Numbered from the whole stretch's first letter, positions 25,605-53,902 are shown. The stretch is DNA of 62,121 nt, filler included, from 6 parts of 6 records of this genome joined end to end with filler, not necessarily neighbours in it, one strand, 5' to 3'. The notes: generated by a model from the letters alone, not told the origin. Made by a program: numbers and translations.

Positions 25605-26682
25605 CTATTACTGATCTCCCCGTTTTCCACATTGAACATATTACCTTGGAAAACATCTTTTCTGAAGTATGACTCACCTGGAAGAAATGTAAAAAAAGCC
25701 TGGCTGAAACCAGTTGTATGATCAAGAAACAGCTCCCTGCGGGTATGATCAAGTTCGAGAAGTACGTCATCAAGCAGAATTATGGGGTTTACACCGCTTT
25801 TTTTGTATAAAAGGCAGTCTGCGCGGCTCTCAGCACAAGCGAAACAAGTCTTTTTTGTCCAGTTGATGCAGTTTCAACATAGTCCTTACCATCTTTCACG
25901 ATAATAAACCTATCCCGGTGGGGTCCTGTGGTAGTTAGCTGATAGCGTTTATCTACAGAATGCGCGGCAGCAAGTCTGTCCAGGGCTTCCTCGCGTGTAT
26001 TACAGTTTTTCCAGGAAGGACGGTAAACAACTTTTATAATTTCTCCATTCTGGGAAACAGCAGAAAAGAGGTCAGGAAATATTTCATTAAATTCTGCTAC
26101 CAGCAAGGCTCTTTTTCTCTGAATTTCTATTCCTATTTCCGCCAGCTGTGTATCATACAGATGGAGTAAGTCATATGTTTCTTCCTTAAGCAGTGCATTT
26201 CTCTGTTTCAGCAAATGAGCATATCTTCTCATATCATCCAGAAATACAGGGTCGTAGAGGGTAAGTGTCTGATTATAAAATTTTCTTTTATCTTCCGGAG
26301 TTCCCTGAACAAAAAGAATATCCTCATGAGTGAAAACTATGCAGGGAATGGTATAAATGAGATCTTTCCTATCTTTTATCTCTTTTCCCTGTAAAGTTAT
26401 AGTTCTTTTACCATCTTTAATGGAAAATACAATATATACCCGCTCACCATCCTGCAGTTCAACATATGTTTTTACGAAGGCGTCTTTTTCAGAAAACGTG
26501 ACTATTTGCTTCAGTGGGGATTTTCGAAAAGAATTACCGTAACTTGAGCAGTAAATAGCTTCCAGAAAATTTGTTTTTCCCTGTCCGTTATTTCCCACAA
26601 GAATATTGTAAGTACTGTCTGTATCAACGGTCTGGTTTTTGAGATTTCTGATATTATATGTGGTAACCGAGAGGATGCGCAT
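25601..26682 (-). CDS. recF: DNA replication/repair protein RecF (frameshift at ~25800)
   Basis: GNNGQGKTN, GPHRD, STGQKR; the corrected frame gives PIILLDDVLLELD and a stop overlapping the DUF721 ATG. Confidence 0.93.
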
Positions 26683-27785: not shown

Positions 27786-28117
27786 GTAAATCTCCTTGGT
27801 TAAAATAACAAATCAACACATTTAATGTATTCAAAAATTTATTAAAATCCTTTCTACTATTAATTATATATAAATTAGTAGTAGTAATAGTAGGGTCTGT
27901 GGATAATGTGGAAAAGATATATAAGTTATGACTTAATATAATTTTACTGTTGATTTTTGCTGTTAATAAGTCTGCATTTTTATCAACAGTTTATCCACAT
28001 TATCCACAACTATATCATATTATCCACAATTGGATGACAAAAATCCACCATTTATTAAGAAGTAATAAACAAAATATCCACAGGCAAAAATGGGTTAAAA
28101 GATGGCTTTATTATAGA
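27786..28117. promoter_or_regulatory. Chromosomal replication origin oriC (dnaA-dnaN intergenic)
   Basis: TTATCCACA at 27991, 28000, 28020; TGTGGATAA 27898; near-consensus boxes at 27907, 27980, 28074; TAG trios 27876-27893; adjacent AT-rich stretch. Confidence 0.92.
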
Positions 28118-29170
28118 TTAAAAGCGCTTATATTCATTTATGGAGCGTATAAGTTTTTGTATAATACTGTCCATTGCTGGATCACTTTGCAGTAAACCTT
28201 CAACACGCTGGCACGCATGCATAACTGTTGTATGATCCCTTCCTCCAAATTCATATCCAATCTCTGTAGTGGAATAATCTGTCATTTTTCGTGCTATATA
28301 CATGGCCACCTGGCGGGGCATAACGATTGCCCGGGTTCTTTTTTTACCGCGCAGTTCAATATAAGAGAGATTAAAGTATTCAGATACAACACGCTGTATG
28401 GTTTCAATAGCTATACTCTGTTCTCTGTTTAGTGAATATGAGTCTTTCAGCTGTTCCTGAGCAATATCAATGGTAATTTCTTTATTGAGTAGTTTAGAGT
28501 AGGCAATAAGCTTTGTGAGAGAAGCTTCCAGATCTCTTACATTTGTATTAATATTTTCACAGATAAACGTTAATACATCATCACTCATATGATAATTCTG
28601 CTGTCTGCATTTTTTACTGAGAATTGCCATTCTTGTCTCAAAGTTTGGAGGTTGAAGATCTACATTTAAACCTCGTTCAAAACGACTGCGTAATCTTGCG
28701 GTAAGTTCTTTCAGTTCTGATACCGGTCTATCGCAGGTAAATACCATTTGTCTGTTTGAATCGTAAAGATCATTAAAGGTATGAAATAATTCTTCCTGTG
28801 TAGAAGTTTTACCTGATAGAAAATGAATATCATCGATAAGCAGTATATCAACCCTGCGATACTTATTCTTAAAACGCTGTGTTTTACCATCTCTTACTGA
28901 AGCGATAAATTCATTTGTGAATGTTTCGGCTGTAACATATTGTGTGACGAGTTCAGGCGTATTTAATTGAACATAATTTTTTATAGATTGAATCAAGTGA
29001 GTTTTTCCCAATCCAACTCCGCCATAAATGAGACACGGGTTGTATGTAGCTCCCGGGTTTTTTGCTATTGCAAAACAGGCATTATATGCGAAAGAACTAT
29101 TGTCTCCCACAACAAAAGAATCAAATGAGTAAATGGATGTTCCATTACCGGTTTTTTGGTTTTTTTCTTT
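28118..29170 (-). CDS. dnaA: Chromosomal replication initiator DnaA, 5' truncated
   Basis: YGGVGLGKTHL, LLIDDI, RLRSRF, FGGRDHTTVMHA. Confidence 0.98.
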   Translation of the reverse strand, partial: KEKNQKTGNGTSIYSFDSFVVGDNSSFAYNACFAIAKNPGATYNPCLIYGGVGLGKTHLIQSIKNYVQLNTPELVTQYVTAETFTNEFIASVRDGKTQRFKNKYRRVDILLIDDIHFLSGKTSTQEELFHTFNDLYDSNRQMVFTCDRPVSELKELTARLRSRFERGLNVDLQPPNFETRMAILSKKCRQQNYHMSDDVLTFICENINTNVRDLEASLTKLIAYSKLLNKEITIDIAQEQLKDSYSLNREQSIAIETIQRVVSEYFNLSYIELRGKKRTRAIVMPRQVAMYIARKMTDYSTTEIGYEFGGRDHTTVMHACQRVEGLLQSDPAMDSIIQKLIRSINEYKRF

Positions 29171-38606: not shown

Positions 38607-38701
38607 ATTTGTGAGGTAACAGCTATTTTTGCAGTCCGGAGGAGTTACAGCGCGATGCGGATAACAGGATTTTGTGATTAAGCAAAACGTTTTTCACGGA
38701 A

Positions 38702-39544
38702 TCATTCATTAGCTAAAGCTTCAATGATTTTCGAGCAGCCGCCATGACATAAATAGTTGGCATGATCGTCAATATTCTCAAACTTCCGTCCGACTATTTT
38801 GGAACACTCGAATTCATATTCGGTGCAATTTACAAATCTATCAATCGCATCTATAGCTCTGGAATTTTTAAATTCAATTTTACCATCTCCCTCCAGGCTG
38901 CTTCTCATACCGATGATCCAAATGGCAGCCCCCAATGCTCCGCAGGCACCGCCGCATAAACCGATACCACCCGCAAGTCCAGCTAGCATTACTGTATGCA
39001 TATGGGACAAGCCCATCTTTCGTGCCAACTCAGCTGTGCAACTTACAGGCGGTGATGGCGCTTTAATATATTCTTCGGAAAAGGCGGTATTAATCTCACG
39101 AAATGCGACCGGGGCATATTTTATCGCCATCCGAAAGCAGCTTATGCTCCCGCCCTTTAAAAGAAAATAGGTAATCATCTCCATAGTTGAAGATGAATTG
39201 TCCAAATCAGTTAGATCAATGCAATTTATGCTACTGTTACATGCATGGAAGGATTCCACAAGTCTATGGGCGGCATTAATTGCCTTAATTTCAGCTTGTG
39301 GGACGGGACCAAGAAGTTGATAAGCCTGTGCCCCTGCTGCAAGTGTCGCCCCCCAAATCATACCGCACTGGTAGCCATGTTGCATTATTCCACCGGCAAG
39401 AGGCATGACAGCGTTTTCTTCGGATTTCAATGGGTGATCGTATGCGTCGTTGAGAACTCTCAACAGTGCTCCTGATCACGCAACTTTAAGAAATGAACGC
39501 ACGGTTCCTATTGATGTTATCCCGCTTTTTGATTTGATCATCAT
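38702..39544 (-). CDS. C-GCAxxG-C-C family redox protein (two repeats), probable selenoprotein (Sec23)
   Basis: AGGAG RBS plus ATG at 39544; in-frame TGA at 39476-39478; LAGG...QCGMIWG and LAGG...ACGALG repeats; hairpin 11 nt after the TGA. Confidence 0.8.
39449..39464 (-). promoter_or_regulatory. Putative bacterial SECIS element
   Basis: GTTGAG-AGTT-CTCAAC perfect stem-loop starting 11 nt after UGA, with G in the second loop position. Confidence 0.65.
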
Positions 39545-39662
39545 GTCTCCTCTTGTTATTCACATTTTATTATATTCCTATTACTGCTTTGCTTTGGTGT
39601 TAACATCCAGATTCGCTCACGTACAAAGTGATTTACGACAATAATCCTTCAAAGTAATCACA

Positions 39663-39697
39663 CCCTAACGACTATCTCACCTGCTCCGCAATAGGGG
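39663..39697 (-). repeat. Degenerate attC (right arm only)
   Basis: ...GCGGAGCAGGTGAGATAGTC GTTAGGG; left arm not clearly identifiable. Confidence 0.5.
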
Positions 39698-39900
39698 AAC
39701 AGGGATCTTTGATTTAAATTAAAACGCTGTGCGGTACTTTCAAGTTTAAAAATCACGACATAAGAAAGTGTTTTGAGTGGAGAAACTTGAATGAATTCGG
39801 AACCGTTAAATTCCTGTTCGTTTTCCTCGATAAAAGTTGGATTTCAGTGTATTGTTCAATGTAGCTGAAAAATCCCAAGTTATCAGGTCTGTCGTTAAAT

Positions 39901-40215
39901 TTATTGTTCAATATCCAATTCTATTCCACCAAACCATCTTGCATATAAATTATAGAGAAAAGATTCCAAAATTCCAATTATAAATCCAAAGGTTGCAAAA
40001 ATAATTGGCATACCTAAAAGTGCTAAAAACGCAAGTGCGGTACCATAACCTATTCCCGGTGTTGTGTTGCTGCTTATCACCCTGGTACTTACGAGTACAT
40101 CATAAATAGCTCCACCAAATGAATATATAATTCCAGCAATGAAACCGATAATGGCCATTGTAACAGCATGCAATTTTGCCAGGAAGAGCATTCTCATTTT
40201 TTTTAATTTTGCCAT
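39901..40215 (-). CDS. Small two-TM hypothetical protein (cassette cargo)
   Basis: Two hydrophobic segments; YN...W.GGIE C-terminal motif. Confidence 0.7.
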   Translation of the reverse strand: MAKLKKMRMLFLAKLHAVTMAIIGFIAGIIYSFGGAIYDVLVSTRVISSNTTPGIGYGTALAFLALLGMPIIFATFGFIIGILESFLYNLYARWFGGIELDIEQ

Positions 40216-40400
40216 TCTTTATTCACATTCTTATCATTAAATTGAAATCAAGATGAATGCCTTTCTAAATTTTGGGTAGGTGGAATCCCAAAATGGACCG
40301 ACTTTAGAAACTAATGTTTGTTGTTCTTATACCGCCAGATTGGTGGGATATTATTACTTGTTTATATTTTTCATATACCATTTTCATTTTTTCTCCGTAC

Positions 40401-40462
40401 ACATAACGTTTTAATTTAGCGACCGCAAAAAGCAGAGCGAGGTCCGGGTAAATGCAATTTTT
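40401..40462 (-). repeat. Degenerate attC
   Basis: R' GTTATGT, ATTTACCCGGACC/GGTCGCTAAAT arms; R'' lost. Confidence 0.6.
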
Positions 40463-40466
40463 AAAA

Positions 40467-40790
40467 TTATTTTGGGCCTGGCATCTCTACTAACTCTGAC
40501 ACCTCAAGTGAACCATTAATATCAAGAAAAGGACAAGCCTTTGCAATCGACAGTGCCGCTTCCATAGAATCCGTTTCAATAATGGTGTAACCAGACATTG
40601 TCGTTGTTCCTCCGGTAGTAACAGTACCATCTGGATTTACTGTGTTCGTATTTTTGAGTGGATTGGCAGGACTAACAGCAGCGTCGCCCAAAGAAGATAC
40701 CCAATCCATATATTTCGAAAAATGTTTCTGACCTTCCTCCGGGCTGGATGGCTGATCGCCGCCCAGATAAACAATAAGGTATTGAGGCAT
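40467..40790 (-). CDS. YciI-like (DGPF-type) protein (cassette cargo)
   Basis: SGYTIIE..SMEAA..IAKACP..GSLEV; AAGGAG RBS. Confidence 0.8.
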   Translation of the reverse strand: MPQYLIVYLGGDQPSSPEEGQKHFSKYMDWVSSLGDAAVSPANPLKNTNTVNPDGTVTTGGTTTMSGYTIIETDSMEAALSIAKACPFLDINGSLEVSELVEMPGPK

Positions 40791-40835
40791 TTGTGTTTCT
40801 CCTTTATTAAAATTTAACTGTTACATGCTAAAAAC

Positions 40836-40926
40836 ATATAACTTGATTAGAGATTAGCTAAATGACCACATTTTTGTTTAGTATTAGACAACAATTATTT
40901 TGTTGTTACTATTCAATTTGTTAGGC
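40836..40926 (-). repeat. Probable AT-rich attC
   Basis: R'' GCCTAAC ... R' GTTATAT with TTGAATAG/CTAATCAA arms. Confidence 0.55.
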
Positions 40927-41002
40927 TAAGTTCTTTCAGGTATCCTTGAGGATTTTTCCGCACTTTCCCTATTTTATTTTCCATCACTTGATTTGACGAT
41001 CT

Positions 41003-41543
41003 AAAATGGTTAAAAAGGTTATAGTCTTCTCTTTTCAACAACATAATGTAATATGGTGTATGGAGATTTTGGTTAGTGATGCTATTAGGGTTAAAGAGCG
41101 AAAAAGTAAGGTTTTCGAAAGGTTTGATGGGGATGAATTTGACGTTTTAATCTGTATTTGGTTGGGGTATGGTGGACTATCATTTTTTTCAATTGGCGAT
41201 GCAATGTAACAGCTGTTTTTGTAGTCTTATGGGGATAAATATCCTGGTTTAATTGGCGCCCGACATGGATATGTCAGACGATCATTTTTCTATTTTATTA
41301 AAAAATAAACTAATAAGGTTTGTAGAGGTTTTAATTATCGATGCTATTAGGTTAAAGAGCAAAAATTGAGGTTTTCGAAAGGTTTGGTATGGATGATTAT
41401 GCCTTTCATTTATATTTAGCAAAGGTATGGTGTATGAGCAGAAATTTTCAACTGTAGATGTGGGCTTATAGTTGTTTTTGAAATCCGGTGGGGATAAATA
41501 TCCCAATTTATCTGGTGTCCGGCATGGATATACCGGACGATCA
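41003..41543. repeat. ~260-bp tandem repeat array 1 (leader plus 2 units)
   Basis: GATGCTATTAG at 41078 and 41340; GGGGATAAATATCC and hairpin...GACGATCA in both units. Confidence 0.85.
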
Positions 41544-41895
41544 GAATAAGGTTGCTTAAATCAAAAAATGTTACACTTTAATTGATTTAGTATTTTCCCT
41601 CAAAAGGATGGAATATACACAACATTTTGGACTTGACACCTTTTTAATCCAGCCTGAATTTCGGACAATTTACAATATGGTACTTGTTTTTATTGATCGA
41701 ATGACTTAACTTTAAACCGATTCATTTGTACCTCCTTGATTTATCTGAACACCCTTTCAGGTTTATACATTTTATAAATTACATAGCAATTAAGAGACCG
41801 GCAGAACCGGTTTATTAGACCGCTGACGGAAGTAGTGGCCTTTAAAAGTGCAATAAAACATTTAAATTCTTCCCGACTTTTCTCAGGGACAGACT

Positions 41896-41985
41896 ATGGA
41901 ACTCTTGACGTAACGCTACGCTGGTAAAATGGACGGCATCCTATCCTGCTATGTTAGAGTAGTCATAAGCGGACATAAATCATAA
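41896..41985 (+). pseudogene. Remnant 5' end of a putative transposase-like gene
   Basis: MELLT*RYAGKMDGILSCYVRVVISG, recalled as similar to a GvLSCyDRvvi.G N-terminal motif; internal TAA. Confidence 0.4.
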
Positions 41986-42107
41986 GTCGCAAAAGTTGTA
42001 AAGAAACTGAATAATAAACTTTTACGCGGACCTGCAAAGCCTGCTAATGTGACTTATTCCGTACTATTGCAGGTTATTTTTCAAACTTTTCAATTTAATT
42101 ATTAACT

Positions 42108-44072
42108 ATGAGAACAATGATGACACTTTTTAAAAAATATCAATGGACGACACTTCTGCTCATGCTTTTAGCTGGCAGCTTAACAGCACAGGTAAAACTT
42201 TCACATATCTTTAACAACAACATGGTGTTACAGCAGGGAATGAAAATTCCCGTCTGGGGATGGGCTTCCCCAGGAGAGAAAGTGACTGTAACTTTTGATA
42301 AGGCAATTGTTTCAGCCAAGGCGAACAAAGAGGGAAAATGGGCACTGAATTTACCGGCTATGAATTATGGCGGTCCTTTCAAAATGACTGTAAAAGGGAA
42401 AAATCTAAAGACGTTTGAAAATATCATGATCGGTGAAGTATGGGTATGTTCAGGGCAGTCAAATATGGAATTTCATCTGGTTAATAGTAAAAATGGAGAT
42501 GCCGAAGTTGCAGCATCTGATTACCCTAATATAAGACTCTTTACAGTCAAAAAAAGAATCTCTCAAATTCCTCAGGATCACCTTGAGGATGCAGAATGGC
42601 TCCCATGTTCGCCGGCTACCTCTCCCCATTTTTCTGCTGTGGGTTATTTCTTTGCAAAAGCACTCTATGAAAAATTTAAAGTCCCGATAGGACTGATTAA
42701 CACTTCATGGGGTGGTACGATAGCCGAGACCTGGACCAGCGATGAAATGATCTCAAGGAATCCCGATTTTGTCAATCAGATGGCGCAACTGAAGAAAATT
42801 GATCTGAATGATTATGCGCGGACTGTTGAGAAAGAGGTAAAATCAAGAGTTGGTGCGTTTTCTACCATTGATCTGGGAATGAAAGGGGATCTACCGGTCT
42901 GGGCTGCTCCTGACTTTGATGATACCACCTGGAAAACAATGAAACTACCCGGATTAATTGAGCATAATGGACTGGTAGGTGTGGACGGGATCATATGGTT
43001 CAGAAAAGAGGTGGATATTTTGCCTACTGAAGCAGGGAAAACTGCGACCCTGAGCCTTGCCAAGATCAATGACTCTGATAACACCTACCTCAACGGAACA
43101 CTCATCGGAAGTAATAAACTGATTGCTGAAAAATCCAGAATCTATACAATTCCTGCCGGATTACTGAAATCAGGAAAGAATATCATTACCGTTCAAGTCG
43201 AAGACATCGGCAATATGGGTGGCATCTATGGTAATCCAGCTGCTCTTAAATTGCAGTGCGACGACCGCACTATTTCACTGAGCGGTAATTGGAAATATAA
43301 GGTTGGCCTGGTAAAATTCAGTGCCGTTTTAAGTCCCAACTCCTATCCTACCCTTCTTTACAATGGAATGATTCACCCATTAATTCCGTACGGTATCCGG
43401 GGTGCAATCTGGTACCAGGGTGAGGGAAACGCCGGAAGGGCAAAACAATATCAAAGAGTATTTCCCGATCTGATCAAAGACTGGAGAAACCATTGGGATC
43501 AGGGTGACTTTCCTTTCCTCTTTGTCCAACTGGCCAGCTTTATGAAGAGCGATTCCTTGCCGCAGGAGAGCAGCTGGGCTGAACTCAGGGAGGCTCAGAG
43601 CATGACACTGGCGCTGCCCAATACGGGAATGGCTGTCACAACTGATGTTGGAGATGAACTCGATATTCATCCCACAGATAAACAGACTGTTGGAAAACGA
43701 CTGGCATTGTCTGCCCTGAAAGTCGCTTATAAACAAGATGTTTTATTTAGCGGACCCGTTTATAAATCAATGAGTGTTAATGGCAGCAACGTTACCCTAA
43801 CTTTCGAAGAGGTTGGCGACGGATTGAAAGTCAAAGATAAATATGGCTATCTGAAAGGTTTTGCGGTGGCAGGCGAAGATCATAAATTCTACTGGGCAAG
43901 TGGCAAACTGACAGGGAAAAATACCCTTGAAGTTTCTTGTCCAGAGGTTCACCATCCCGTGGCAGTGCGCTATGGCTGGGGTAATAATCCCGATGATGCC
44001 AACCTTTACAACAGCGCCGATCTTCCTGCTTCACCGTTCCGAACCGATCAGTGGAGGGGAATTACAGAATAA
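42108..44072 (+). CDS. Sialate O-acetylesterase (SASA/SGNH) family
   Basis: GEVWVCSGQSNM, WGGT, GAIWYQGE, DIHP, PASPFRTD. Confidence 0.92.
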   Translation: MRTMMTLFKKYQWTTLLLMLLAGSLTAQVKLSHIFNNNMVLQQGMKIPVWGWASPGEKVTVTFDKAIVSAKANKEGKWALNLPAMNYGGPFKMTVKGKNLKTFENIMIGEVWVCSGQSNMEFHLVNSKNGDAEVAASDYPNIRLFTVKKRISQIPQDHLEDAEWLPCSPATSPHFSAVGYFFAKALYEKFKVPIGLINTSWGGTIAETWTSDEMISRNPDFVNQMAQLKKIDLNDYARTVEKEVKSRVGAFSTIDLGMKGDLPVWAAPDFDDTTWKTMKLPGLIEHNGLVGVDGIIWFRKEVDILPTEAGKTATLSLAKINDSDNTYLNGTLIGSNKLIAEKSRIYTIPAGLLKSGKNIITVQVEDIGNMGGIYGNPAALKLQCDDRTISLSGNWKYKVGLVKFSAVLSPNSYPTLLYNGMIHPLIPYGIRGAIWYQGEGNAGRAKQYQRVFPDLIKDWRNHWDQGDFPFLFVQLASFMKSDSLPQESSWAELREAQSMTLALPNTGMAVTTDVGDELDIHPTDKQTVGKRLALSALKVAYKQDVLFSGPVYKSMSVNGSNVTLTFEEVGDGLKVKDKYGYLKGFAVAGEDHKFYWASGKLTGKNTLEVSCPEVHHPVAVRYGWGNNPDDANLYNSADLPASPFRTDQWRGITE

Positions 44073-44150
44073 AAAGAGTTGGCTCGTATTCTTTTTATTA
44101 TGTGAGATCTTGTATGCACCAATTTTTTCCACAAAATGATTTAACAAAAT

Positions 44151-44519
44151 AAAATGGGTAAAAAGGTTATAATATTCTATTTTAATAAAAATAATGTAAT
44201 AAGGTTGGTGGAATTTTTGATTATCGATGCTATTAAGGTTTAAGAGCAAATAAAAAAGGTTTTCCAAGGGTTTAGTGGGGAGACATATCCTGATTACTGG
44301 TATTTGGCAGGGATATGGGAGATGAGAAGGAATTTTCAAATGTAGATGCAAAGTACCAGCTGCTTTTGCAGTCCGGTGGGGATAAATATCCTGGTTCATT
44401 TGGCGTCCTACATGAATATGTTGGACGATCATTTTCAATTTTATTGCAAAAGAAGCTGATAAGGTTTGTGGAGTTTTTGGTAATCGATGCTATTAGGTTA
44501 AAGAGCAAAAAATAAAGTT
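44151..44519. repeat. ~260-bp tandem repeat array 2 (leader plus 1 unit plus partial unit)
   Basis: Same leader as 41003; GATGCTATTA at 44226 and 44486. Confidence 0.85.
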
Positions 44520-44541
44520 GTCGAACTCTGCAAGTTCGCAG

Positions 44542-44668
44542 GATATAACAATTAAATCACCGGTTTGGACAGCATCGGGCTTGCCGATGCTGGGAACGAC
44601 TGATCTAATCCCCCGAATATTGCGCAAAGGAATCGGCTATCCAAATCCTGTGCATTTGCTTGTTATGT
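44542..44668 (-). repeat. attC site (127 bp), R' degenerate
   Basis: ACATAAC..AAATGCACAGG ... CCGGTGATTT..GTATATC; similar to the attC at 46931-47057. Confidence 0.8.
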
Positions 44669-44708
44669 GGTTATACAATTCTATCCTGCTCCTTAACAGA
44701 TCTCATCC

Positions 44709-46046
44709 TTATTTAGGATGGCGTGACTTGTATTTAACTTCCGGATAATCTTTAGAAGAAATATTTAACAAAGGAGCAAACATTCCTTTCAAGTGTCTAT
44801 TGAAGAATTGAAGTACGTAAGCATTCTGAATTTCTATAAACTTCCTTCCATTAATGGCCCCCAAAATATCCTGAAAGTCATCTGTTAAATATTCTTTAAA
44901 TGCTGATATATCACAAAAATTACTGTGAGTGGCATCATTTATTTGTACCATATAAATGCTACTTTTTGAAGAATGGTATAACAAATCATTTATTGGCAAA
45001 CAGTCCTGACACCAGGATTCGACACTTTCGATAACCATAAAGGGGACGGTTAGTTCTTTTTCAGCAATATCTCCGAACATAAATCCACTTAGATTGATCC
45101 CCGCTTTGCATCTTTTTTCCGTTATACAGGCCTGACCCGCTGCAGCACCACCTTTTGAATAACCCAAGACACCGATTTTCTGAAGATCGAGTTTTCCTGC
45201 GAACGGCTGTTCTAATCGGTTCATTTTATCAAGCTCATCAATGATGAAGCTAATATCTTCTACCCATAGCCGGATATCATTTATTTCTAAGGGCATATTT
45301 TTATTTAGCTTTTTCTGAAGAGTTAATTTTTTCTGGACTGTTTCAGCTCTCGTCAATTGTTCTTTTAATTGCTCAACAATATCGGAATTCTCCTCTTTCC
45401 ACAATTTTTTATTGTATTCATCGTTTTGCTCATCTCGAAAAAGAACTTTCCCTTGAGCATCAAAGTAGTATGCGCACCAATGAGGATGTCCCAGGCAGAA
45501 AACTACATATCCATGACTAGCAAGTTCTTCAGCTAATAATATATTTGCATCTAGAACGCCGGAAGCGGAATATAATAGTATAGGATAGGGTGATTGTTCA
45601 TTTGCCATCTCTGCATCCAGGACTGAGTGAGAAGGCATATTTGCGACTTCATTTACAAATGAGGAAGTAAATAATCCAAAATTTACCCAATATTCTGCGG
45701 TTTCTTTATTATTGAAATTGTGAAATATTTGAATAGAATCTATTAACGCTGGATACCAAACCTGAGCGGAAATCGTACGATAATCATGTGGATCAGACGT
45801 GAATAAATCTGGTCGGTTTTTGTCAGTAAAATAAAAATAACGTGTACCAATTGAATTTGGGCCCGTAGGTTTTGGTAATTTAAACTCGTGAGAAGAGAGG
45901 GAATTGCAACATGTTGCCATAAATGCAAAGATTAGAGTAGAAGCGAGAAACGAATTAATTGGAATTACCTTTGCTCTTCTGAAAAAATGAATTAATACCA
46001 AAAAAAACAAGAACATTGTTAAAATATTTATTTCCATTAATGGCAT
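44709..46046 (-). CDS. Alpha/beta hydrolase, PAF-acetylhydrolase-like (cassette cargo)
   Basis: LPKPTGP, QVWYPA, LASHGYVV, GYSKGG nucleophile elbow, HSNFCD. Confidence 0.85.
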   Translation of the reverse strand: MPLMEINILTMFLFFLVLIHFFRRAKVIPINSFLASTLIFAFMATCCNSLSSHEFKLPKPTGPNSIGTRYFYFTDKNRPDLFTSDPHDYRTISAQVWYPALIDSIQIFHNFNNKETAEYWVNFGLFTSSFVNEVANMPSHSVLDAEMANEQSPYPILLYSASGVLDANILLAEELASHGYVVFCLGHPHWCAYYFDAQGKVLFRDEQNDEYNKKLWKEENSDIVEQLKEQLTRAETVQKKLTLQKKLNKNMPLEINDIRLWVEDISFIIDELDKMNRLEQPFAGKLDLQKIGVLGYSKGGAAAGQACITEKRCKAGINLSGFMFGDIAEKELTVPFMVIESVESWCQDCLPINDLLYHSSKSSIYMVQINDATHSNFCDISAFKEYLTDDFQDILGAINGRKFIEIQNAYVLQFFNRHLKGMFAPLLNISSKDYPEVKYKSRHPK

Positions 46047-46076
46047 ATGTCTTCATCCTATATCTGATATTTTACC

Positions 46077-46130
46077 ACATAACGAAAAACTCACCGGTTC
46101 GCAAAAGCGGAGTACAGCGACTGGTTATGT
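46077..46130 (-). repeat. attC site (54 bp, internally deleted)
   Basis: ACATAAC ... CCGGTGAGTTTTTC GTTATGT. Confidence 0.7.
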
Positions 46131-46169
46131 AACGTCTTTCACCATGTGTATTATATGATCTGTGCGTTG

Positions 46170-46907
46170 TTAGTCGCGCATAAACCATCCCGTTACCGTT
46201 TCGAGAAATGGACCAAACCGGCCGAATGGGTGAAGGGGTTTTAATAGGTCTGCCTTGATTTTTTCGGCCATCTTTATACCTATGTTGCGTGCTTCTTTGA
46301 GTTGCTCTGTGGAGAGTTCTTTGAACAGATACGCTCTGTGCCAGTCTTCGGCCTGTAGCTTCCTGGAGAATTCCCCGCCAGCATACATCGCACCGACCCA
46401 GTCCGCGTTGAAAATGAGGCAGCCGTTCTGCTTCATAAATGGAGTTCCATCATTACAGTACTTCTTTCCCTGCTTCGTGGGCATAGAACCGGCGCTTACT
46501 ATAGTAGCCAGTGCTCGTATCTTACTTGACCGAGGCTCAGGCACTCCCCTGAAGGTCAGTAATTTGCCCGTCGGCTGGCAGAGTCTCCATGCGATACGTT
46601 CAAAAAAAACTGTCATCAAACCAGTATTGAATCCGTTATGAACTGGTGACGAGAGGATGATTCCATCGGCATCCATGACCTTTTCCAGGATCTCACCCAC
46701 GCTATCATTAACCGAGCAGGATGCAATCTCGGAGTCCAGGTCCTTGTAACACATCAGGCAGTTGGTGCAATAGCGCACATCGTGATCTTGAAGCAAGACC
46801 ATTTCAGTTTCAGCACCAACCGATGCTGCCCCTCCAAGAGCTGCTTCGGTCAGACCTGTAGTGGTTCCCTTTTTACGGTACGCTCCATTGATAGCAAGTA
46901 TCTTCAT
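46170..46907 (-). CDS. Flavodoxin / iron-sulfur flavoprotein family (cassette cargo)
   Basis: MKILAINGAYRKKGTT, CTNCLMC, ADGIILSSPV; GAGGAG RBS. Confidence 0.88.
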   Translation of the reverse strand: MKILAINGAYRKKGTTTGLTEAALGGAASVGAETEMVLLQDHDVRYCTNCLMCYKDLDSEIASCSVNDSVGEILEKVMDADGIILSSPVHNGFNTGLMTVFFERIAWRLCQPTGKLLTFRGVPEPRSSKIRALATIVSAGSMPTKQGKKYCNDGTPFMKQNGCLIFNADWVGAMYAGGEFSRKLQAEDWHRAYLFKELSTEQLKEARNIGIKMAEKIKADLLKPLHPFGRFGPFLETVTGWFMRD

Positions 46908-46930
46908 GTCACTACTCCTCATTCACTAAG

Positions 46931-47057
46931 ATATAACGATAAAATCACCGGCGGGAACAGCATCGAGTCTGCTCGATGCTGTGGAAACTTGACTGATCCC
47001 GTACAAAATAAGGTAGACGAATCTGCTGTTCCAGTCCGGTGCATTTTGGAGTTATAC
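46931..47057 (-). repeat. attC site (127 bp)
   Basis: GTATAAC..AAATGCACCGG ... CCGGTGATTT..GTTATAT with an extra G in L''. Confidence 0.9.
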
Positions 47058-47121
47058 TGTTTTTCCATGTATTCATAAGATCATTTTTTTCTTTTTCGAG
47101 TCAACAACTAGCCAATTCAAA

Positions 47122-50037
47122 CTAATCCAGCTCCAAATCCAAAGCATATTCAACCGCTTTTTCAAATTCCATCTGGCGACCTTTTTGTTCGAATTCGTCA
47201 GCAGCTTTTTCGCCGAGTTCTATGCGAGCTTGTCCTATGGTTTTTGATATTAGCTTACTCCAAAATATAATACTTTCGGGGGATGCTCCCAATGCTTCAC
47301 ATTTAGCGACAGCTGCACCGTTCAAAAGCAAAGCTTTTTTAAATTTGCGCTGACCTGCAAGGGACATAGCGACTCCCTGCATGTCATAAGCTGTTTGTTG
47401 TATATCGCCGATTTTAAATCCCAATCGAACCGCATCGCCATAGCGTTTTTCCGACTCTACATAATTTTCCTTCATGATAGCACAATCTCCATACATGTGT
47501 TGAGCAATTAATGGATCCCACTGCATCTTGAGTGCCTTTGCACTTTTGGAGATTTCTAAAACTAAAGGTTCAGCCTCGTCTGGCTGAAATTGGGAGATGA
47601 ATCCATATGCATTCCATAACTTTGCTCTTAATAACAATTTTGGATCGTTGCATTTTTCCAATGTATCTACAGCCTCAGATGTACATTCGAGACCTTTAGT
47701 ATATTCAGTTGTAAAATGCAAATAAAGCATACCCATATAGGTAAGTAAAAATCCTATCTCTCTTTGATCACCCAAGTCTCGCCACAATTCAAGTCCTTTG
47801 TTAAACCAAATCAGGCCATTATCAAAGTCCCCTAAAATCGACAACAGCAATCCATAACCAGATAAACCTCGGGCGTAAATTGAATCACGATTATCATATC
47901 GGGTTAATACATTTTCCAAATAACGGAATCCGATAGAAAAATGAGCCCGGACCCGCCAAAACCAAAAGAGTGCTCCAGCAAGTTGAAGAAGCAATTTAGG
48001 TTTCTCTGTTACCCAATCCAATGCTGCTATCAAATTTTCATGTTCCAATTCCAACCGATTACCCCAGGTAGCTTCTTCACCAACATGGTTTATGTAAGCT
48101 TTTTCAGCTAACTCGAGAAAATATTTAAAATGCCTTTCACGAATAGATCTTGATTCATTTGCTTCAAGTAACTTTTCTCTTCCATAATGTCTAATAGTTT
48201 CCAACAGTCGATAGCGATAGGTGCCATCTTTATTCGTCTCCGTAACAACCAGTGATTTATCAATCAGGCTGGACATAAGCTCAAAAATGTTTTCTTTGGT
48301 GAGTGGTTTGATACCGCAGATATCTTCCACTGCTTCCATATCGCAACCACCAATAAAAACTGAAAGACGATTGAATAGTATTTTTTCTTCATCAGATAAA
48401 AGTTCATAACTCCAATCAATAGTTGCACGCAGAGTCTTTTGCCGCTCTAAGGCTGTTCGACTCCCTCCGGTGAGTAACTGAAAACGGTCATCAAGTCGAT
48501 TTAAAATTGTGCCTGGACTGAACAGTTTGATCCTTGCTGCAGCCAGTTCGATTGCCAGGGGAATGCCGTCCAATCTGCTGCATATTTTTGCGATTGTATC
48601 AATGTTCTGATTTGATATTCCAAAAGAAGGATTGTTGTTCTTTGCCCTGTCAACAAACAATGTAATACTTTCGAATTGTGATGTATCTTTGGCCTGCAGA
48701 GCCTGGTCAGACTTTGGAACAGAAAGAGATGGAACACGCCACGCCAGTTCACCCTGAATGTTGAGTGCTTCCCGACTTGTAGCCAATAAAGTAAGGTTTT
48801 TAGCCGTTTTCAATAGCTGTTCAACAATATCCGAACAAGCACTTATAAGATGTTCACAATTATCCAACAACAACAGGAGATTTTTATCTTTGATTGTTTT
48901 CGTTATTGTATCTACAATGGGAGTTTGTGCCTCTACTTTTACCTGTAAGGCAGAGGCTATGACCTCCGGAATGCGTTGACCATCAGACAGTGAGGCCAAT
49001 TCCACCAGCCAAACGCCATCATCATAATTATCTGTAATCTCTATGGCGATTTGCTGTGACAATCTGGTTTTACCACATCCGCCCGCCCCGGTCAAGGTGA
49101 CCAGCCGGTGATCCGATAATAATTCTTTCACCGTTTCAATCTCTTTTTCACGTCCGATAAAACTGGTCAAATAGCCTGGGAGATTATGCTTAGCAAGTTG
49201 ACTTGTTTCCGGTTTACTAACCGGCAATTGTTTTTCAATGGCCTGAATAATCTCCTGCATCAATCCAAAGCGATTCTCTGCTTCTTTTTGGAGGCATTTT
49301 CCAATAATATCCTCCAGATAATCCGGGCAATTTTGACAAAGGCTTTTGGTTTCTTTAGGTTCTTCGTTGAGGATCGAGTACATCATAGCGGATTCGTAAT
49401 CGCCACGAAAGGGGAGTTGCCCTGTGAGCATCTCAAACAGCACTACGCCGAATGAGAAGATGTCAGTAAGTGCGTCCACCGTCTGCCCTTGAATTTGCTC
49501 CGGTGACATGTAAGCCAAAGTACCGACAGTGGAATGGTCTTTAGTCAAATCCGCACCTTCACCGACTTTCGCCAGGCCAAAATCCATGATTTTAATCTGT
49601 CCGGTTTCTGTGACCATAATATTTGCTGATTTTATATCGCGGTGAACGATACCTTTGTCATGGGCGACCGACAAACCTTTGGCGATTTGGATAGTATAGT
49701 TTAATACATCATCAATCTTCATGGGCATTTCGCCCCGAGTCCCTACAATATTCCGTAACGTTTTCCCCTCAACATATTCCATTACAATAAACTGCTGTCC
49801 TTCATGTTCCTGTATATCATAAATAATACAAACATTGGGGTGATTAATGGCAGCGGCAGCTTGAGCCTCCTGAAGGAATCGAGCTTGATCGGTTTTATTG
49901 ACTGTGAGATGTTGGGGAAGAAATTTTAAGGCGACAACTCGTTTGAGTTTTGTGTCCTCGGCTTTATAGACAATGCCCATGCCTCCTTCACCGAGTTTTT
50001 TGAGGATTTTATAATGGGAAATTAATTTACCAATCAT
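47122..50037 (-). CDS. Ser/Thr protein kinase - STAND/NB-ARC ATPase - TPR-like protein (cassette cargo)
   Basis: GEGGMG, HRDIK, DFG, YMSPE; Walker A GAGGCGKT, Walker B LLLLDNCEH, GIPLAIELAAAR; helical C-terminus. Confidence 0.92.
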   Translation of the reverse strand: MIGKLISHYKILKKLGEGGMGIVYKAEDTKLKRVVALKFLPQHLTVNKTDQARFLQEAQAAAAINHPNVCIIYDIQEHEGQQFIVMEYVEGKTLRNIVGTRGEMPMKIDDVLNYTIQIAKGLSVAHDKGIVHRDIKSANIMVTETGQIKIMDFGLAKVGEGADLTKDHSTVGTLAYMSPEQIQGQTVDALTDIFSFGVVLFEMLTGQLPFRGDYESAMMYSILNEEPKETKSLCQNCPDYLEDIIGKCLQKEAENRFGLMQEIIQAIEKQLPVSKPETSQLAKHNLPGYLTSFIGREKEIETVKELLSDHRLVTLTGAGGCGKTRLSQQIAIEITDNYDDGVWLVELASLSDGQRIPEVIASALQVKVEAQTPIVDTITKTIKDKNLLLLLDNCEHLISACSDIVEQLLKTAKNLTLLATSREALNIQGELAWRVPSLSVPKSDQALQAKDTSQFESITLFVDRAKNNNPSFGISNQNIDTIAKICSRLDGIPLAIELAAARIKLFSPGTILNRLDDRFQLLTGGSRTALERQKTLRATIDWSYELLSDEEKILFNRLSVFIGGCDMEAVEDICGIKPLTKENIFELMSSLIDKSLVVTETNKDGTYRYRLLETIRHYGREKLLEANESRSIRERHFKYFLELAEKAYINHVGEEATWGNRLELEHENLIAALDWVTEKPKLLLQLAGALFWFWRVRAHFSIGFRYLENVLTRYDNRDSIYARGLSGYGLLLSILGDFDNGLIWFNKGLELWRDLGDQREIGFLLTYMGMLYLHFTTEYTKGLECTSEAVDTLEKCNDPKLLLRAKLWNAYGFISQFQPDEAEPLVLEISKSAKALKMQWDPLIAQHMYGDCAIMKENYVESEKRYGDAVRLGFKIGDIQQTAYDMQGVAMSLAGQRKFKKALLLNGAAVAKCEALGASPESIIFWSKLISKTIGQARIELGEKAADEFEQKGRQMEFEKAVEYALDLELD

Positions 50038-50091
50038 GATACTATCCCATATTGATTAGTTTTTTCTTTTTTTATGATTGTAATTTTAGCA

Positions 50092-50190
50092 GTATAACTA
50101 CCGAATGTTAACCGGATTTTACGTTATATAAACTTCCAATTGCCGATTCATGCTTGCGTGTAAAATTCCGTGTTGAACATATTGTAATAC
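50092..50190 (-). repeat. attC site (99 bp), R'' mutated
   Basis: GTATTAC..ATGTTCAAC ACGGAATTTTAC ... GTAAAATCCG GTTAACAT..GTTATAC. Confidence 0.8.
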
Positions 50191-50265
50191 GCCATAAAAA
50201 CAAAGGCCAACAGCAAAGTATATTATACCTTTCTAATGCATTAAATACAGTGTTGGCAGTAGCAA

Positions 50266-50748
50266 TTAATTATTTGGACTGACGGAATGTATATATATTC
50301 TCCAGTCACCATTTTGTTTTTTTCTAAGTACATCCAAATATTTTACATCCATTTGGATTTGTAAAGTGTCTGCTTTTGGCCTAATGGTGATCAAGCCTCT
50401 ATGTCGATGAATAGCGATATCGCCCCTTACGATTACTTCTTCCGACTTGTAATTTGTCAGCTTAAATGTGTTAGCTGCAAAAAACTCTTCAAGTTCAGAC
50501 CTGAAAGTATCAAGGTTGGTGATAGGTTCTCTTCCTGCATCATACCCAATAAAATCATCAGTGACATAGGAAAAGTAACCCTCAATGTTTCCTGCCTCAA
50601 TCTCCTTAATAAAGTCAGAAAAAACCTGTTTTACTTTTTCTTGTTCAGATGCAGTATCAGGTTTCTCACCTTTACCACATCCAATAATTAGTAGAAGAGT
50701 TAGTCCTAGAGTTATGTTTAACAGAGTTCTCATATCAATTTCACTCAT
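50266..50748 (-). CDS. DUF4440/SnoaL-like lipoprotein (cassette cargo)
   Basis: LIIGC lipobox, KYLDVLRKKQNGDWRI; start may be 50733. Confidence 0.8.
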   Translation of the reverse strand: MSEIDMRTLLNITLGLTLLLIIGCGKGEKPDTASEQEKVKQVFSDFIKEIEAGNIEGYFSYVTDDFIGYDAGREPITNLDTFRSELEEFFAANTFKLTNYKSEEVIVRGDIAIHRHRGLITIRPKADTLQIQMDVKYLDVLRKKQNGDWRIYIHSVSPNN

Positions 50749-50880
50749 TTTGATTTAAGGTTATCATTAACTAAAATTACAACTAATGTTTGTGTATATT
50801 CACTGCGCTTAACCTATCTATTTGGCAATTTTTACTGATGAGATAAGATATATCAAGCAAATCATCGATATGGTTAGACA

Positions 50881-50938
50881 GTATAACGGTTTGCGTTCAG
50901 GAACGCCCTTTGGCGTCTCCTGGAACACCTGGTTCGGC
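50881..50938 (-). repeat. attC site (58 bp)
   Basis: GCCGAAC..TTCCAGGA GACGCC-AAAG-GGCGT TCCTGAA..GTTATAC. Confidence 0.9.
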
Positions 50939-50957
50939 AGTATTCCTTTGAAATGTT

Positions 50958-51875
50958 TCATAACCTTAGTTGAAGCCTTATTGTTTTGTCTAATGAGGCA
51001 GTAAGCCATTTCTTCTCGACCGTCAGTTCTCCCAGCAGCGACAACACATCCCTATCTATCTCTTTTTCTGTCTCAGAGTCGCCATAGAAAACCTTCAGAG
51101 TATTGGAGACGACTTTCATCCGCGAGCGAATTGGCGACAGGGTTATGTTCCATGCACACGCTGCAAATGGCTTCTCCTGCTTGAGTTTGCCACCAATTAC
51201 CTCGAGTACGATCTGGAGATTTTCTACAAAATTCCAATGGCATGTCCAAAGCAGGTCTATGGCAAGACCCAACGAGAAATCCCCGCCGTCTAACCCTTGA
51301 AGCCCTTCAAAGGGGACTGTCTGAACCGTTTGCCGCCAGAAATCCTCGTGTTCCTTATAGTGATCCGGGCAATCTTCTTGGTCGTATGAGAGCCATGCAT
51401 ACTGTGTGCTTGGGTCCTGATCCGACCACGGCCAATTGGTCCAGCTGCGGATCTTTTCGATCACCCGCTGGACCTGCCATTCTTTCAGTGGCGAGCGTTC
51501 CCCAAGGCAAGCAAGGATCCGAGATGCCGGAACAGTACCTATGGTTAAGTCGATTGATGTGCTGGGACATCCTGCAACCCACGCTGAGAGGGCGCCGCAG
51601 GCATTCTTCGATACGATTTCAGTGGGATGAATTTGGCCAGGCGTTCGGGTGCCCAATCCCTTACTGGTCTCTCCCGTCGCGATTGCTTCAAGTATGTTGC
51701 TAACCCATCTCTCAGCCTTGTGGTGGCACATCTCAAGGCTTCCAATCAGTCCTCGAATCTTCGATACGTTCGCTGCAATGGGGGCAATCTGATCCTCCAG
51801 ACTGTCGATGGCCACGATCTCGGAATCGGTTTCCTGGCCGATGCCGCAATTGTTCCACCAATCTCGCGTCGTCAT
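50958..51875 (-). CDS. Hypothetical protein (cassette cargo), true start MTTRDWW
   Basis: AGGAGG RBS downstream of the attC; the ORF-track extension to 51956 runs through the attC. Confidence 0.75.
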   Translation of the reverse strand: MTTRDWWNNCGIGQETDSEIVAIDSLEDQIAPIAANVSKIRGLIGSLEMCHHKAERWVSNILEAIATGETSKGLGTRTPGQIHPTEIVSKNACGALSAWVAGCPSTSIDLTIGTVPASRILACLGERSPLKEWQVQRVIEKIRSWTNWPWSDQDPSTQYAWLSYDQEDCPDHYKEHEDFWRQTVQTVPFEGLQGLDGGDFSLGLAIDLLWTCHWNFVENLQIVLEVIGGKLKQEKPFAACAWNITLSPIRSRMKVVSNTLKVFYGDSETEKEIDRDVLSLLGELTVEKKWLTASLDKTIRLQLRL

Positions 51876-51901
51876 TTGCTTTCTCCTCCTATCTATGCGT
51901 T

Positions 51902-51969
51902 GCCGAACACAATCTTCACCCGCCCGAGCCGCAAACGCGGCGAGGATCGGGTGCAAGCATAAGTTAGGT
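51902..51969 (-). repeat. attC site (68 bp)
   Basis: ACCTAAC..TTGCACCC..GCCGC-GTTT-GCGGC..GGGTGAA..GTTCGGC. Confidence 0.92.
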
Positions 51970-51988
51970 TTTTATCTTTCAGGGCTAT

Positions 51989-52684
51989 TCACAGTTGACG
52001 TTCAATTTCATAAAAAGTCGCAAATTCTGATAGATCCTTGTTGTCACAGAATTTTTCGAATTCTTTCTTTTTTTCAGCATCTAATTCTCCATTTTTCATC
52101 TGCTGTAGGAGATCTTTCGCTTCTGGTATCATTACAGTCTCAATTTTTCTGAATCCATGTTTGCTGTATGTGCGCAGCATCGGGGTACACATCTCTGAAG
52201 ACAACCAATAGTTATCCGGATAAGCAAAACAGCGTACGCTCTTCCAGCTATTATTCTTTGCCCACTCTAGGATGGCATCGATGAGCTTATGGCTGAGTCC
52301 CTGTCCCTGATAATCCTTGTGCACAAAAAAACAAGTAATTCTGAGTATTCGTTCAGCCGGATTTGCTAATGGAGGAAGCTTCATCTCCACCATCTCTTGA
52401 GTTATGGCATAGTTTGAATCCTGACAACAGAATTTGAACTGATTGTAAATTATCTGAGGATAGAATCTGGCGTGAGCCACAACCGAGTCACCCTCCATGG
52501 CTAACATAGCACATGAACCATAAGTGTCAATCAGCCGTGCAAGAAATTTCTTATTTCGGTCTAATTGTTCCTTGGGTAGACTTTCGATATTCATACTCTT
52601 TGCTTCGATGTTAGAAGGACTTAACAGTCCGTCGTGAAGGCATCGGAACAATATAAAATCCTTATTCATTGGACAGATTTTCAT
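51989..52684 (-). CDS. GNAT family N-acetyltransferase (cassette cargo)
   Basis: ITCFFVHKDYQGQGLSHKLI acetyl-CoA motif, YSKHGF; AAGGAG RBS right after GTTAGGT. Confidence 0.85.
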   Translation of the reverse strand: MKICPMNKDFILFRCLHDGLLSPSNIEAKSMNIESLPKEQLDRNKKFLARLIDTYGSCAMLAMEGDSVVAHARFYPQIIYNQFKFCCQDSNYAITQEMVEMKLPPLANPAERILRITCFFVHKDYQGQGLSHKLIDAILEWAKNNSWKSVRCFAYPDNYWLSSEMCTPMLRTYSKHGFRKIETVMIPEAKDLLQQMKNGELDAEKKKEFEKFCDNKDLSEFATFYEIERQL

Positions 52685-52699
52685 TTATGCTCCTTGAAA

Positions 52700-52831
52700 A
52701 CCTAACTTTAGCATCACCTGCGCTGCCGCATTTAGCGAATAAAATTTAACCTCTTATAAATATTTAAATAAATGTACATATATTACCTTCAAAGCTGACC
52801 GCGGCAGTGTCAGGTGAATGCAGTGTTAGGA
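52700..52831 (-). repeat. attC site (132 bp)
   Basis: TCCTAAC..GCATTCACCTG..CTGCCGC ... GCGGCAG..CAGGTGATGC..GTTAGGT. Confidence 0.9.
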
Positions 52832-52955
52832 AAATCAACTATATTATTTATAACAAGTTGATTAGGTGTAAACATATAATTTCGGTTTAATTTTCTATTT
52901 TCTTTCAATCTATTTTATGACTTTACCAATTCTTGACCAACGTATTTTATTTTGT

Positions 52956-53055: not shown

Positions 53056-53177
53056 GAGTTTGAGAATCTTGACGATCTGTTCCTCGCTGAATCGACTCTT
53101 TCCCATGATATCCTCCGTCTTTTTCTTACTACGGAGAACTCTCATTTTCTACGCCCTAGTTTTCAGGGGGAATGTCA
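53056..53177 (-). mobile_element. Left end of an IS3-family (IS407-like) element with orfA start
   Basis: End TGACATTCCCCCTGAAAAC; ATG at 53106 encodes MGKSRFSEEQIVKILKL. Confidence 0.8.
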
Positions 53178-53902
53178 CTCTAGCTTGACGCGACGTATGA
53201 AAGGTGCGGTGCAACGACGGTACGGTCGTTTCATGTGCCGTCCTGATTGCCACTGGTGTGAATCAGGCAGGGAGGAGATCTATTCTGGAGGTCAGCGTCT
53301 CCTTGAATGAGGCCGAGGTGCATTGGCGTGAGCTTCTCAGTAGCTTGAAGCAAAGAGGTATACACGGAATCGAGATAATCACCAGCGATGATTACCAAGG
53401 CCTCAAGGCAGCGCTCAGGACGACCGTTAATGGTGTTTCATGGACCAGGTGCCATGTACATTTGCAGCGCAATGCTGCCGGATATGTCCCGCGTTTACAT
53501 ATGCAAGCTGAGGTCGCCCAGGATATCCGTTCGATCCTCACTTCTCCTGATGTGGAAAAAGCAGATCGATTCCTGGCTAAAACAGTGAAGAAATACGAGG
53601 GCAAAGCGAGCCGTTTGGCCAGATGGATGCGGGATAATCTTCCGCAAGGTTTTACCATTTTAAAACTGCCTCCATACCAAAAGAAACGGTTACGATCAAC
53701 GAATATGCTGGAGCGGCTCAACAAGGAGATCAAACGAAGAAGCAGGGTTGCAACGCTCTTCCCAAATGAGCAGTCGCTGCTCCGCTAGGTCAGTTCTATC
53801 CTCATGGAAATCAGCTATGAATGGAAGGCAGGCAGGATCTATCTCAGGGTGAGTAACGGCGAATTGGCTAACTGAATTTACAGAAACAATGGTGCGTTAT
53901 CA
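53178..53902 (+). mobile_element. IS256-family transposase pseudogene (3' part) with right end
   Basis: LDATYE, RCHVH, LRSTNMLERLNKEIKRR, FPNEQSLLR*VSS; internal TAG; terminal AATTTACAGAAACAATGGTGCGTTATC. Confidence 0.88.

Follow-up and report, generated by a model that had tools for sequence, protein, structure and literature searches.

Between positions 52831 and 44543, the minus strand of the analysed window (62,121 nucleotides, six contigs joined by N-linkers) very probably carries an array of gene cassettes that was assembled by an integron integrase, that is, an IntI-type tyrosine recombinase, with one gene and one attC recombination site per cassette. The array lies on the contig 38607-52955 (14,349 nt, ∼40% GC) and comprises six single-gene cassettes, with GC contents of 0.34-0.51, which are bounded by five strong attC sites (A, B, C, E and G) and two damaged ones (D and F). 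A first reading of the sequence, hereafter the original prediction, had described a single array down to position 39663, with nearly every minus-strand gene of the contig placed between attC sites. The array is real, but it is shorter than first claimed and partly decayed: 6 of the 9 annotated minus-strand genes in the contig are bounded in this way, a non-cassette block of 3.7 kb (44542-40843) had been overlooked, and the stretch beyond it (40842-38702) holds at most decayed remnants.

The strong sites share the anatomy R''-spacer-L''...L'-spacer-R', in which L'' has an extra base. This anatomy was sought with a scanner for the pattern R'' (AAC), 5 nt, L'' (8 nt), L' (7 nt), spacer and R' (GTT), which gave many loose matches throughout the window before energy filtering; the fold cut-off of -0.18 kcal/mol per base was chosen after the results of the first scan had been seen. 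Five sites on the minus strand of the array contig passed this cut-off. Its plus strand gave none, the remaining five contigs (47 kb) likewise none, and 60 block shuffles averaged 0.05 with a maximum of 2. R'' ends with AAC and R' starts with GTT in sites A, B, C, E, F and G, but not in D (TAC) or in the two distal remnants H and I. L'' and L' are complementary at 7/7 positions in A, B, C and E, at 6/7 in D and G, at 5/7 in H, at 4/7 in F and at 1/7 in I. According to excerpts of PMC5371416, attC sites recombine as folded bottom strands that are recognised by their structure, they have three conserved bases at the cut, and they measure 57-141 bp. The bottom-strand folds of A, B, C, E and G have z-scores of -3.7 to -5.7, and the in silico frequency of the recombinogenic fold (pfold) is 0.42 for A, 0.70 for B, 0.82 for E and 0.79 for G, with ≤0.03 for D and ≤0.002 for F; these values are upper bounds, only pairable positions having been forced. 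Six sites are 58-132 nt long and F, with 54 nt, falls slightly under the published range, so that the predicted span of 54-132 nt is right if this weak site is counted. Judged by anatomy, L boxes and folds, the prediction of minus-strand attC-like sites with R/L pairing thus holds for A, B, C, E and G, whereas D and F are damaged and H, I and a candidate at 40926-40836 do not qualify as sites.

As a further line of evidence, the window was searched with R1, a stand-in attC covariance model from other genomes. R1 was trained on 27 attC sites near IntI, chosen by eye from scanner output on 17 fetched regions, and the window was not part of the training. The regions came from genomes with IntI over the TIGR02249 cut-off, namely 7/285 genomes of the phylum of G002 and 17/201 genomes of the class of G001, which are two of the metagenome-assembled genomes (MAGs) described below. 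Over the 62-kb window R1 gave 11 matches at E≤5, the top six of which were all on the bottom strand and corresponded to sites E (35.3 bits), G (30.1), C (22.3), B (20.0), A (18.2) and F (16.5); the E-values are rough. This whole-window search thus picked up 6/7 array sites, all but D, which reached only 6.2 bits (E 0.14) in a search of 261 nt. In 38607-41100 nothing scored better than E 1.2, so that the covariance-model check bears out the predicted array for 52831-44543 and lends no support to its distal part. An Rfam search of the window returned two chance matches (E 0.85-0.98) and no attC match. Among the array sites only E and G are alike and the attC bodies are otherwise unrelated, in agreement with the several sequence families originally proposed. 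In the E/G family, 7 of 36 predicted pairs show compensatory change, a figure from six related sequences and few events. That the cassettes stem from diverse donors is a reasonable inference from their GC range and the unrelated attC bodies, rather than a demonstration.

The order of the boxes along the array provides additional evidence for cassettes. All six units in 52705-44549 consist of one co-oriented gene per attC and have an opener complementary to their own R''. When the four variable bases after the opening GTT were compared with the four before the AAC of the same cassette, 23/24 matched over the six cassettes; the same comparison within each site gave 17/24, and only 4 of 720 permutations did as well as own-cassette pairing. 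The agreement is complete (4/4) in cassettes 1 (AGGT/ACCT), 2 (CGGC/GCCG) and 6 (ATGT/ACAT), reaches 3/4 in cassette 5 (ATAT/ACAT) and extends to 7/7 for the opener GTTATAC and closer GTATAAC of cassette 4. The four opener/closer pairs originally quoted, for the GNAT, hypothetical, kinase and hydrolase genes, are all present in the sequence. Such a shifted R-box match is the pattern expected from circles opened at G|TT. Furthermore, the cores GCCGAAC/GTTCGGC also occur beside true IntI genes (loci L074, L079 and L086).

Boundaries at the same positions were found in other genomes. The GNAT gene of cassette 1 is present in all three confirmed loci (3/3), in MAGs labelled Pirellulales, Ignavibacteria and SM23_31; the cassette is 86-95% identical in nucleotide sequence across these differently labelled MAGs, and its attC body is different or missing in each. 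In the first locus (L001) the nucleotide homology spans exactly GTTAGGT to ACCTAAC, with none beyond; in the second (L002) it begins at TTAGGT and the attC is lost; in the third (L003), which is cut at its 5' end, it ends at ACCTAAC. L001 and L003 differ in their attC bodies, whose R1 scores are 40.8 bits and 32.7 bits, respectively. The GNAT cassette in the three MAGs shows traffic of cassettes between uncultured lineages. A metagenome comparison covered three marine-sediment runs from two studies besides the source, with 24 of 395 loose contig ends listed. Among the ends listed, at least five X2 contigs and at least three X6 contigs diverge after ACCTAAC into another attC-like arm. At least one X3 contig keeps site B as far as GTT and then reads ATGT, not CGGC, so that another cassette follows the same site (place 51906, G|TT). 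A pattern derived from E and G found four metagenome contigs (L013-L016), in each of which unrelated genes adjoin a related site; R1 matches the E/G-type site in three of them (L013, L014 and L016) and another site in L015. Among the 15 of 18 excision joints listed for X1, none lies at an attC boundary, which is no evidence either way since contigs drop rare forms. The X3 switch and the homology ends at the boxes would be natural footprints of IntI-type recombination at G|TT. Together, the R1 matches, the R-box complementarity and the boundaries elsewhere argue for the predicted insertion of circular cassettes in 52831-44543, though not for continuity of the array to 39663.

Two relatives of array components deserve mention in their own right. 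In locus L046 (positions 1405-1583, genome G091), a copy of the FMN-reductase cassette has lost its interior: ∼80 nt from its start are joined to ∼100 nt from its end, with 83% identity to the window. In the 3.2-kb metagenomic contig L014, three attC matches within 127-2921 surround an HNH-like gene together with another (531 aa) that looks like a defence gene.

Table 1. Features of the array contig, listed in the reading direction of the minus strand (positions are those of the window; z, z-score of the bottom-strand fold; ORF, open reading frame).
Feature	Position	Strand	Description
attC A	52700-52831	-	132 nt; R'' TCCTAAC, R' GTTAGGT; closes cassette cut by contig end 52955; z -4.6
Cassette 1	51908-52705	-	798 bp; GNAT acetyltransferase, ORF 52684-51989, 231 aa; Pfam PF00583 E 4e-8
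attC B	51902-51969	-	68 nt; R'' ACCTAAC, R' GTTCGGC; z -3.7
Cassette 2	50887-51907	-	1021 bp, GC 0.51; hypothetical protein, ORF 51875-50958, 305 aa (start inferred)
attC C	50881-50938	-	58 nt; R'' GCCGAAC, R' GTTATAC; 7-nt spacer; z -4.6
Cassette 3	50098-50886	-	789 bp; DUF4440/SnoaL-like, ORF 50748-50266, 160 aa; Pfam PF14534 E 1.3e-8
attC D (damaged)	50092-50190	-	99 nt; R'' GTATTAC (TAC instead of AAC), R' GTTATAC; L boxes GTTCAAC/GTTAAC; 8-nt spacer; z -0.9
Cassette 4	46937-50097	-	3161 bp; Ser/Thr kinase + STAND (NB-ARC-like) ATPase + TPR, ORF 50037-47122, 971 aa
attC E	46931-47057	-	127 nt; recurring long attC family; highest R1 score in window
Cassette 5	46083-46936	-	854 bp; NADPH-dependent FMN reductase/flavodoxin-like, ORF 46922-46170; Pfam PF03358 E 1.8e-19
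attC F (damaged)	46077-46130	-	54 nt; R'' ACATAAC, R' GTTATGT perfect; L-box pairing poor; z -1.6; R1 E 0.06
Cassette 6	44549-46082	-	1534 bp; alpha/beta hydrolase (PAF-AH-II-like, GYSKG motif), ORF 46046-44709, 445 aa; Pfam PF03403 E 1.9e-17
attC G	44543-44668	-	126 nt; family of E; last well-formed site; z -3.7
Dispersed repeat, first cluster	44125-44525		∼1.5 units (∼259 nt each), immediately beyond attC G; 77% identical to 40977-41379
Sialate O-acetylesterase	42108-44072	+	654 aa; Pfam PF03629; no flanking attC; not a cassette
Dispersed repeat, second cluster	40977-41560		∼2.3 units; 41484-41542 identical in X1 records 4 and 5
YCII-related gene	40467-40790	-	107 aa; Pfam PF03795 E 5.8e-5; GTTATAT before it at 40842; no R1 match either side
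attC remnant H	40401-40465	-	right arm + R' GTTATGT kept, R'' lost; 7/11 pairs possible
Small membrane protein	39901-40215	-	104 aa; only weak Pfam matches below cut-off
attC remnant I	39663-39718	-	right arm GGTGAGA-TAGTC-GTTAGGG only; 4/11 pairs possible
C-GCAxxG-C-C family gene	38702-39544	-	Pfam PF09719; in-frame TGA 39478-39476

Beyond site G the array ends in different DNA: no closer with L boxes matching its GTTATAT follows, and the block 44542-40843 holds the plus-strand esterase between dispersed non-coding repeats. The best match of the esterase is 92% identical, and its named matches, from Prolixibacteraceae, Mariniphaga and Bacteroidota, are 72-80% identical. A further piece of the repeat lies at 38616-38647, and the contig end at 38607 breaks inside a repeat copy. 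Additional copies are present on other contigs of X1 (depth 26-39), one of them beside a kinase gene, and one contig carries two copies ∼1.1 kb apart. The repeat forms a 10-bp hairpin with pairing-preserving changes in three copies, as read by eye, and also contains a GGATATTTATCC-type palindrome. It could be a MITE-like (miniature inverted-repeat transposable element) sequence or a structured RNA. Its reading as a gene ('IRFVEFLVIDAIRLK') was ruled out by the lack of a Pfam match, of a homologue and of a consistent codon bias and by frameshifting indels of 1 and 2 nt, and its reading as an attC by the lack of an R1 match. Relatives of the repeat were found neither in viral contigs and plasmids nor in 285 genomes, and a set of 12 genomes gave one 35-nt match at chance level. 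In X1 record 2, 26 nt matching attC G's right end plus the bases that follow it (window 44529-44554) are joined to a repeat copy, a hint that the source genome holds another junction of this type between array and repeat.

The three genes at 40790-38702 are probably, though uncertainly, cassettes of older date that have become fixed, or genes derived from cassettes; their sites are eroded, and host DNA splits them from the array. GTTRRRY-like words precede all three (40842, 40407 and 39669); the candidate site at 40926-40836 lacks AAC or L-box pairing and has no R1 match. For the YCII-related and membrane-protein genes, the search for homologues that could serve a boundary test gave none in 201 and 285 genomes and no viral loci. 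The C-GCAxxG-C-C gene starts 81 nt before the called ORF and reads through its TGA, at which position homologues have TGA in 11/16 cases and Cys in 5/16. This TGA probably encodes selenocysteine, as judged from the sequence, and the family is listed among prokaryotic selenoproteins in excerpts of PMC9312934. A conserved palindrome after the TGA is a candidate selenocysteine insertion sequence (SECIS) element.

Conceivably, the whole of 52831-38700 was once a single array, which was later split by an insertion of host DNA (the esterase between the repeat clusters) and whose distal third decayed. We regard this history as possible but less likely than not. In its favour are the GTTRRRY-like cores before the distal genes, the attC-like right arm kept by H with a 10-mer shared with the intact attC of L003 (a resemblance chosen after the fact), and the direct repeats that flank the esterase. 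Moreover, integron cassettes age away from attI, and the decay is indeed worst distally, as this history would lead one to expect. However, the distal genes have poor opener/closer matches and no R1 match within 38607-41100, none of 12 loci with homologues of the last gene holds an attC match, and neither a target-site duplication nor a transposase is seen around the esterase. In addition, the repeats are dispersed in the source genome and so need not mark an insertion.

Several observations weigh against an IntI-built array. As originally stated, there is no intI in the window: tblastn with the IntI of L074 gave no match at E≤1, nor any at E≤0.01 in seven loci that hold cassette or attC relatives. 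IntI over the cut-off was found in none of the three MAGs with the GNAT cassette (G001-G003, incomplete) and in none of 12 genomes of the phylum of G003, all incomplete. Among the sites, D is without AAC, F is without L pairing and C is rarely in the recombinogenic fold in silico (pfold 0.003). Cassette 4 is far above the usual cassette size and has the damaged site D upstream, and its kinase-STAND relatives (39-46% identical) gave no convincing attC match in any of seven loci (best E 0.4). Finally, the block 40790-38702 is without model support. Two readings of sequence around the damaged sites were also considered. A wrong-orientation R1 match of 38 nt at 50092-50129 was not accepted as a separate site and is read instead as the palindromic right arm of D, and a likeness of D to the long attC sites of L074 was weak and was not used. 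On the minus strand at 46175-46127, another attC-like pair of boxes, a very weak one (GACTAAC ... GTTACAT, z 0.3), overlaps the FMN-reductase stop and abuts F.

The array-bearing contig stops 124 nt upstream of site A. As this first site is an attC, one further cassette or more lies beyond 52955, possibly with attI and intI. An IntI encoded past the contig end or acting in trans would have assembled the array from cassettes of several origins, with new cassettes entering from the 52955 side. Sites D and F would since have decayed, so that excision would now remove cassettes 3+4 and 5+6 mostly in pairs, between intact sites. A cluster of attC sites lacking integron-integrase (CALIN; Cury et al. 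2016, PMC4889954, in excerpt) that is served in trans and a sedentary integron with intI just past the cut end appear about evenly matched as settings.

It was also considered that the sites might be handled by a non-classical, IntI-less integron-like recombinase, of the kind reported for arrays of Bacteroidota or the Candidate Phyla Radiation (CPR). The non-cassette esterase does point to Bacteroidales-like DNA, and no linked locus has yielded an IntI; yet the sites match a model trained on IntI-adjacent attC, they are heterogeneous rather than one host repeat family, and the same tblastn search gave no tyrosine recombinase gene on the contig. We therefore judge an IntI-less recombinase improbable. 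Only marginally more improbable is that the contig is an assembly chimera, joined via the repeats, in which the array was placed next to Bacteroidales DNA. Near-identical repeat copies do occur on other contigs, the contig end at 38607 breaks in one, and the best named matches suggest one group for the esterase and another for the kinase. Nevertheless, X1 has the stretch in one piece at an even depth of 35.3 (X1 is maybe the source and so not independent), the flanking repeat clusters are only 77% alike, and the array itself would be unaffected. A reading of the palindromes as terminators, or as hairpins that arose by chance between ordinary genes, is highly improbable, and for A, B, C, E and G the evidence already contradicts it: the hairpins do come after stop codons and the three distal 'sites' look like chance or eroded sequence, but terminators account neither for the one extra base in the L boxes nor for the shifted R-box match or the homology breaks at G|TT elsewhere.

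With an IntI-built array as the preferred reading, its largest unit, cassette 4, calls for separate consideration. The encoded protein matches PF00069 (E 2.7e-59) and PF00931 (E 4.9e-10), its kinase and Walker motifs are intact, and the cassette closes with the strongest site, E. The kinase-STAND family is very large (7999 of 8000 scored candidates match at E≤1e-50), and the best named relative is a Ca. Aminicenantes protein (48%). Among the 25 of 34 PADLOC matches listed, the kinase domain is mainly hit (PD-T4-6, mad6), one match reaches residue 412 and no Avs model appears. With a kinase, an NB-ARC-like ATPase and TPR in one chain, the protein resembles kinase-STAND-TPR proteins ('predicted ATPase / Ser-Thr kinase') and Avs/NLR-like STAND defence proteins, from which it differs in that its gene lies inside a cassette and that the PADLOC matches listed include no Avs model. 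STAND-TPR proteins of this type are presumably NLR-like. An anti-phage defence role is a guess, and a rather doubtful one; a signalling role is as likely. More far-reaching is the proposal that the unit is a genuine, once-mobile oversize cassette whose product is an NLR-like sensor with a kinase as its output, most likely directed against phage, and that the array block maybe landed in a dispersed structured host repeat as a secondary target. This we consider unlikely. If true, it would mean that sediment-bacterial integrons are able to carry large multi-domain immune or signalling genes. In excerpts of Cury et al. 2016 (PMC4889954) the largest known cassettes are of ∼2 kb, while published cassette-size tables may hold larger ones. 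Metagenomic cassette genes have a median length of 402 nt (standard deviation 308; PMC7370490, in excerpt), excision falls as length grows, notably from 1.5 kb (excerpts of PMC5371416), and integron-borne defence systems are described as shorter than those elsewhere (excerpts of 10.1101/2024.07.02.601686). Among the papers listed by one literature search, titles and abstract openings revealed no kinase/STAND integron cassette, which is no proof of absence.

As regards the remaining material, the protein of cassette 2 has no Pfam or PADLOC match, and its Atlas matches are all below 0.9. The exact sequences of ten window proteins were all absent (0/10) from the protein collection. The next contig, which is unlinked to the array, opens with insertion sequence (IS) fragments at 53056-53790, including a piece of a Mutator-family (IS256) transposase. 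Other contigs (window 1-29170) have a taxonomically mixed look, with SusC/SusD-type genes at 6643-11430 and a dnaA-dnaN-rpmH-yidC region at 22718-29110, as read from translations; neighbours in the window may therefore come from different genomes.

Compared with known systems, the array resembles CALINs in having at least two attC sites on one strand with under 4 kb between them (the largest gap between model-supported sites, from C to E, is 3.8 kb), no intI nearby on the sequence and mostly non-resistance genes; about five sites is also the CALIN average in excerpts of PMC4889954. It is unlike them in that the absence of intI is limited to the contig, with only 124 nt upstream of A, and in that its 3161-bp cassette exceeds ∼2 kb. 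With sedentary chromosomal integrons, represented by the IntI-adjacent arrays of L074, L081, L085 and L087, it shares the attC anatomy and the core variants, and with L074 in particular the mixture of 126-133-nt with 58-70-nt sites. L074 itself (G173:C1, ∼88900-99400) is a complete integron in a 4-Mb contig, in which intI is followed by at least 16 attC matches, many of 127-133 nt. In contrast to the sedentary integrons, here no integrase or attI is in view and the sites are heterogeneous, not one repeated family; a nucleotide comparison with the IntI-adjacent arrays gave no match at E≤0.05. The GNAT and hypothetical cargo resembles that in metagenome surveys (excerpts of PMC7370490). Cassette insertion outside attI has been described (Loot et al., 10.1101/2022.09.11.507474, in excerpt), and, as with cassettes at secondary attG sites, site G runs straight into host repeat DNA starting TTATAT; here, however, six or more cassettes follow one another, whereas those are single. 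CALINs occur often (PMC4889954) and are to be expected in fragmented MAGs (10.1101/2022.02.06.479319), and marine-sediment integrons have been published (PMC3146285), as far as excerpts of these sources go. Integrase-less attC clusters are thus common and well described, especially from fragmented assemblies and marine samples, and the present array is one more instance. What it adds is the 126-127-nt attC family and the 3.2-kb kinase-STAND-TPR cassette, which offers a test of the size limit of capture and a candidate for phage-defence screening.

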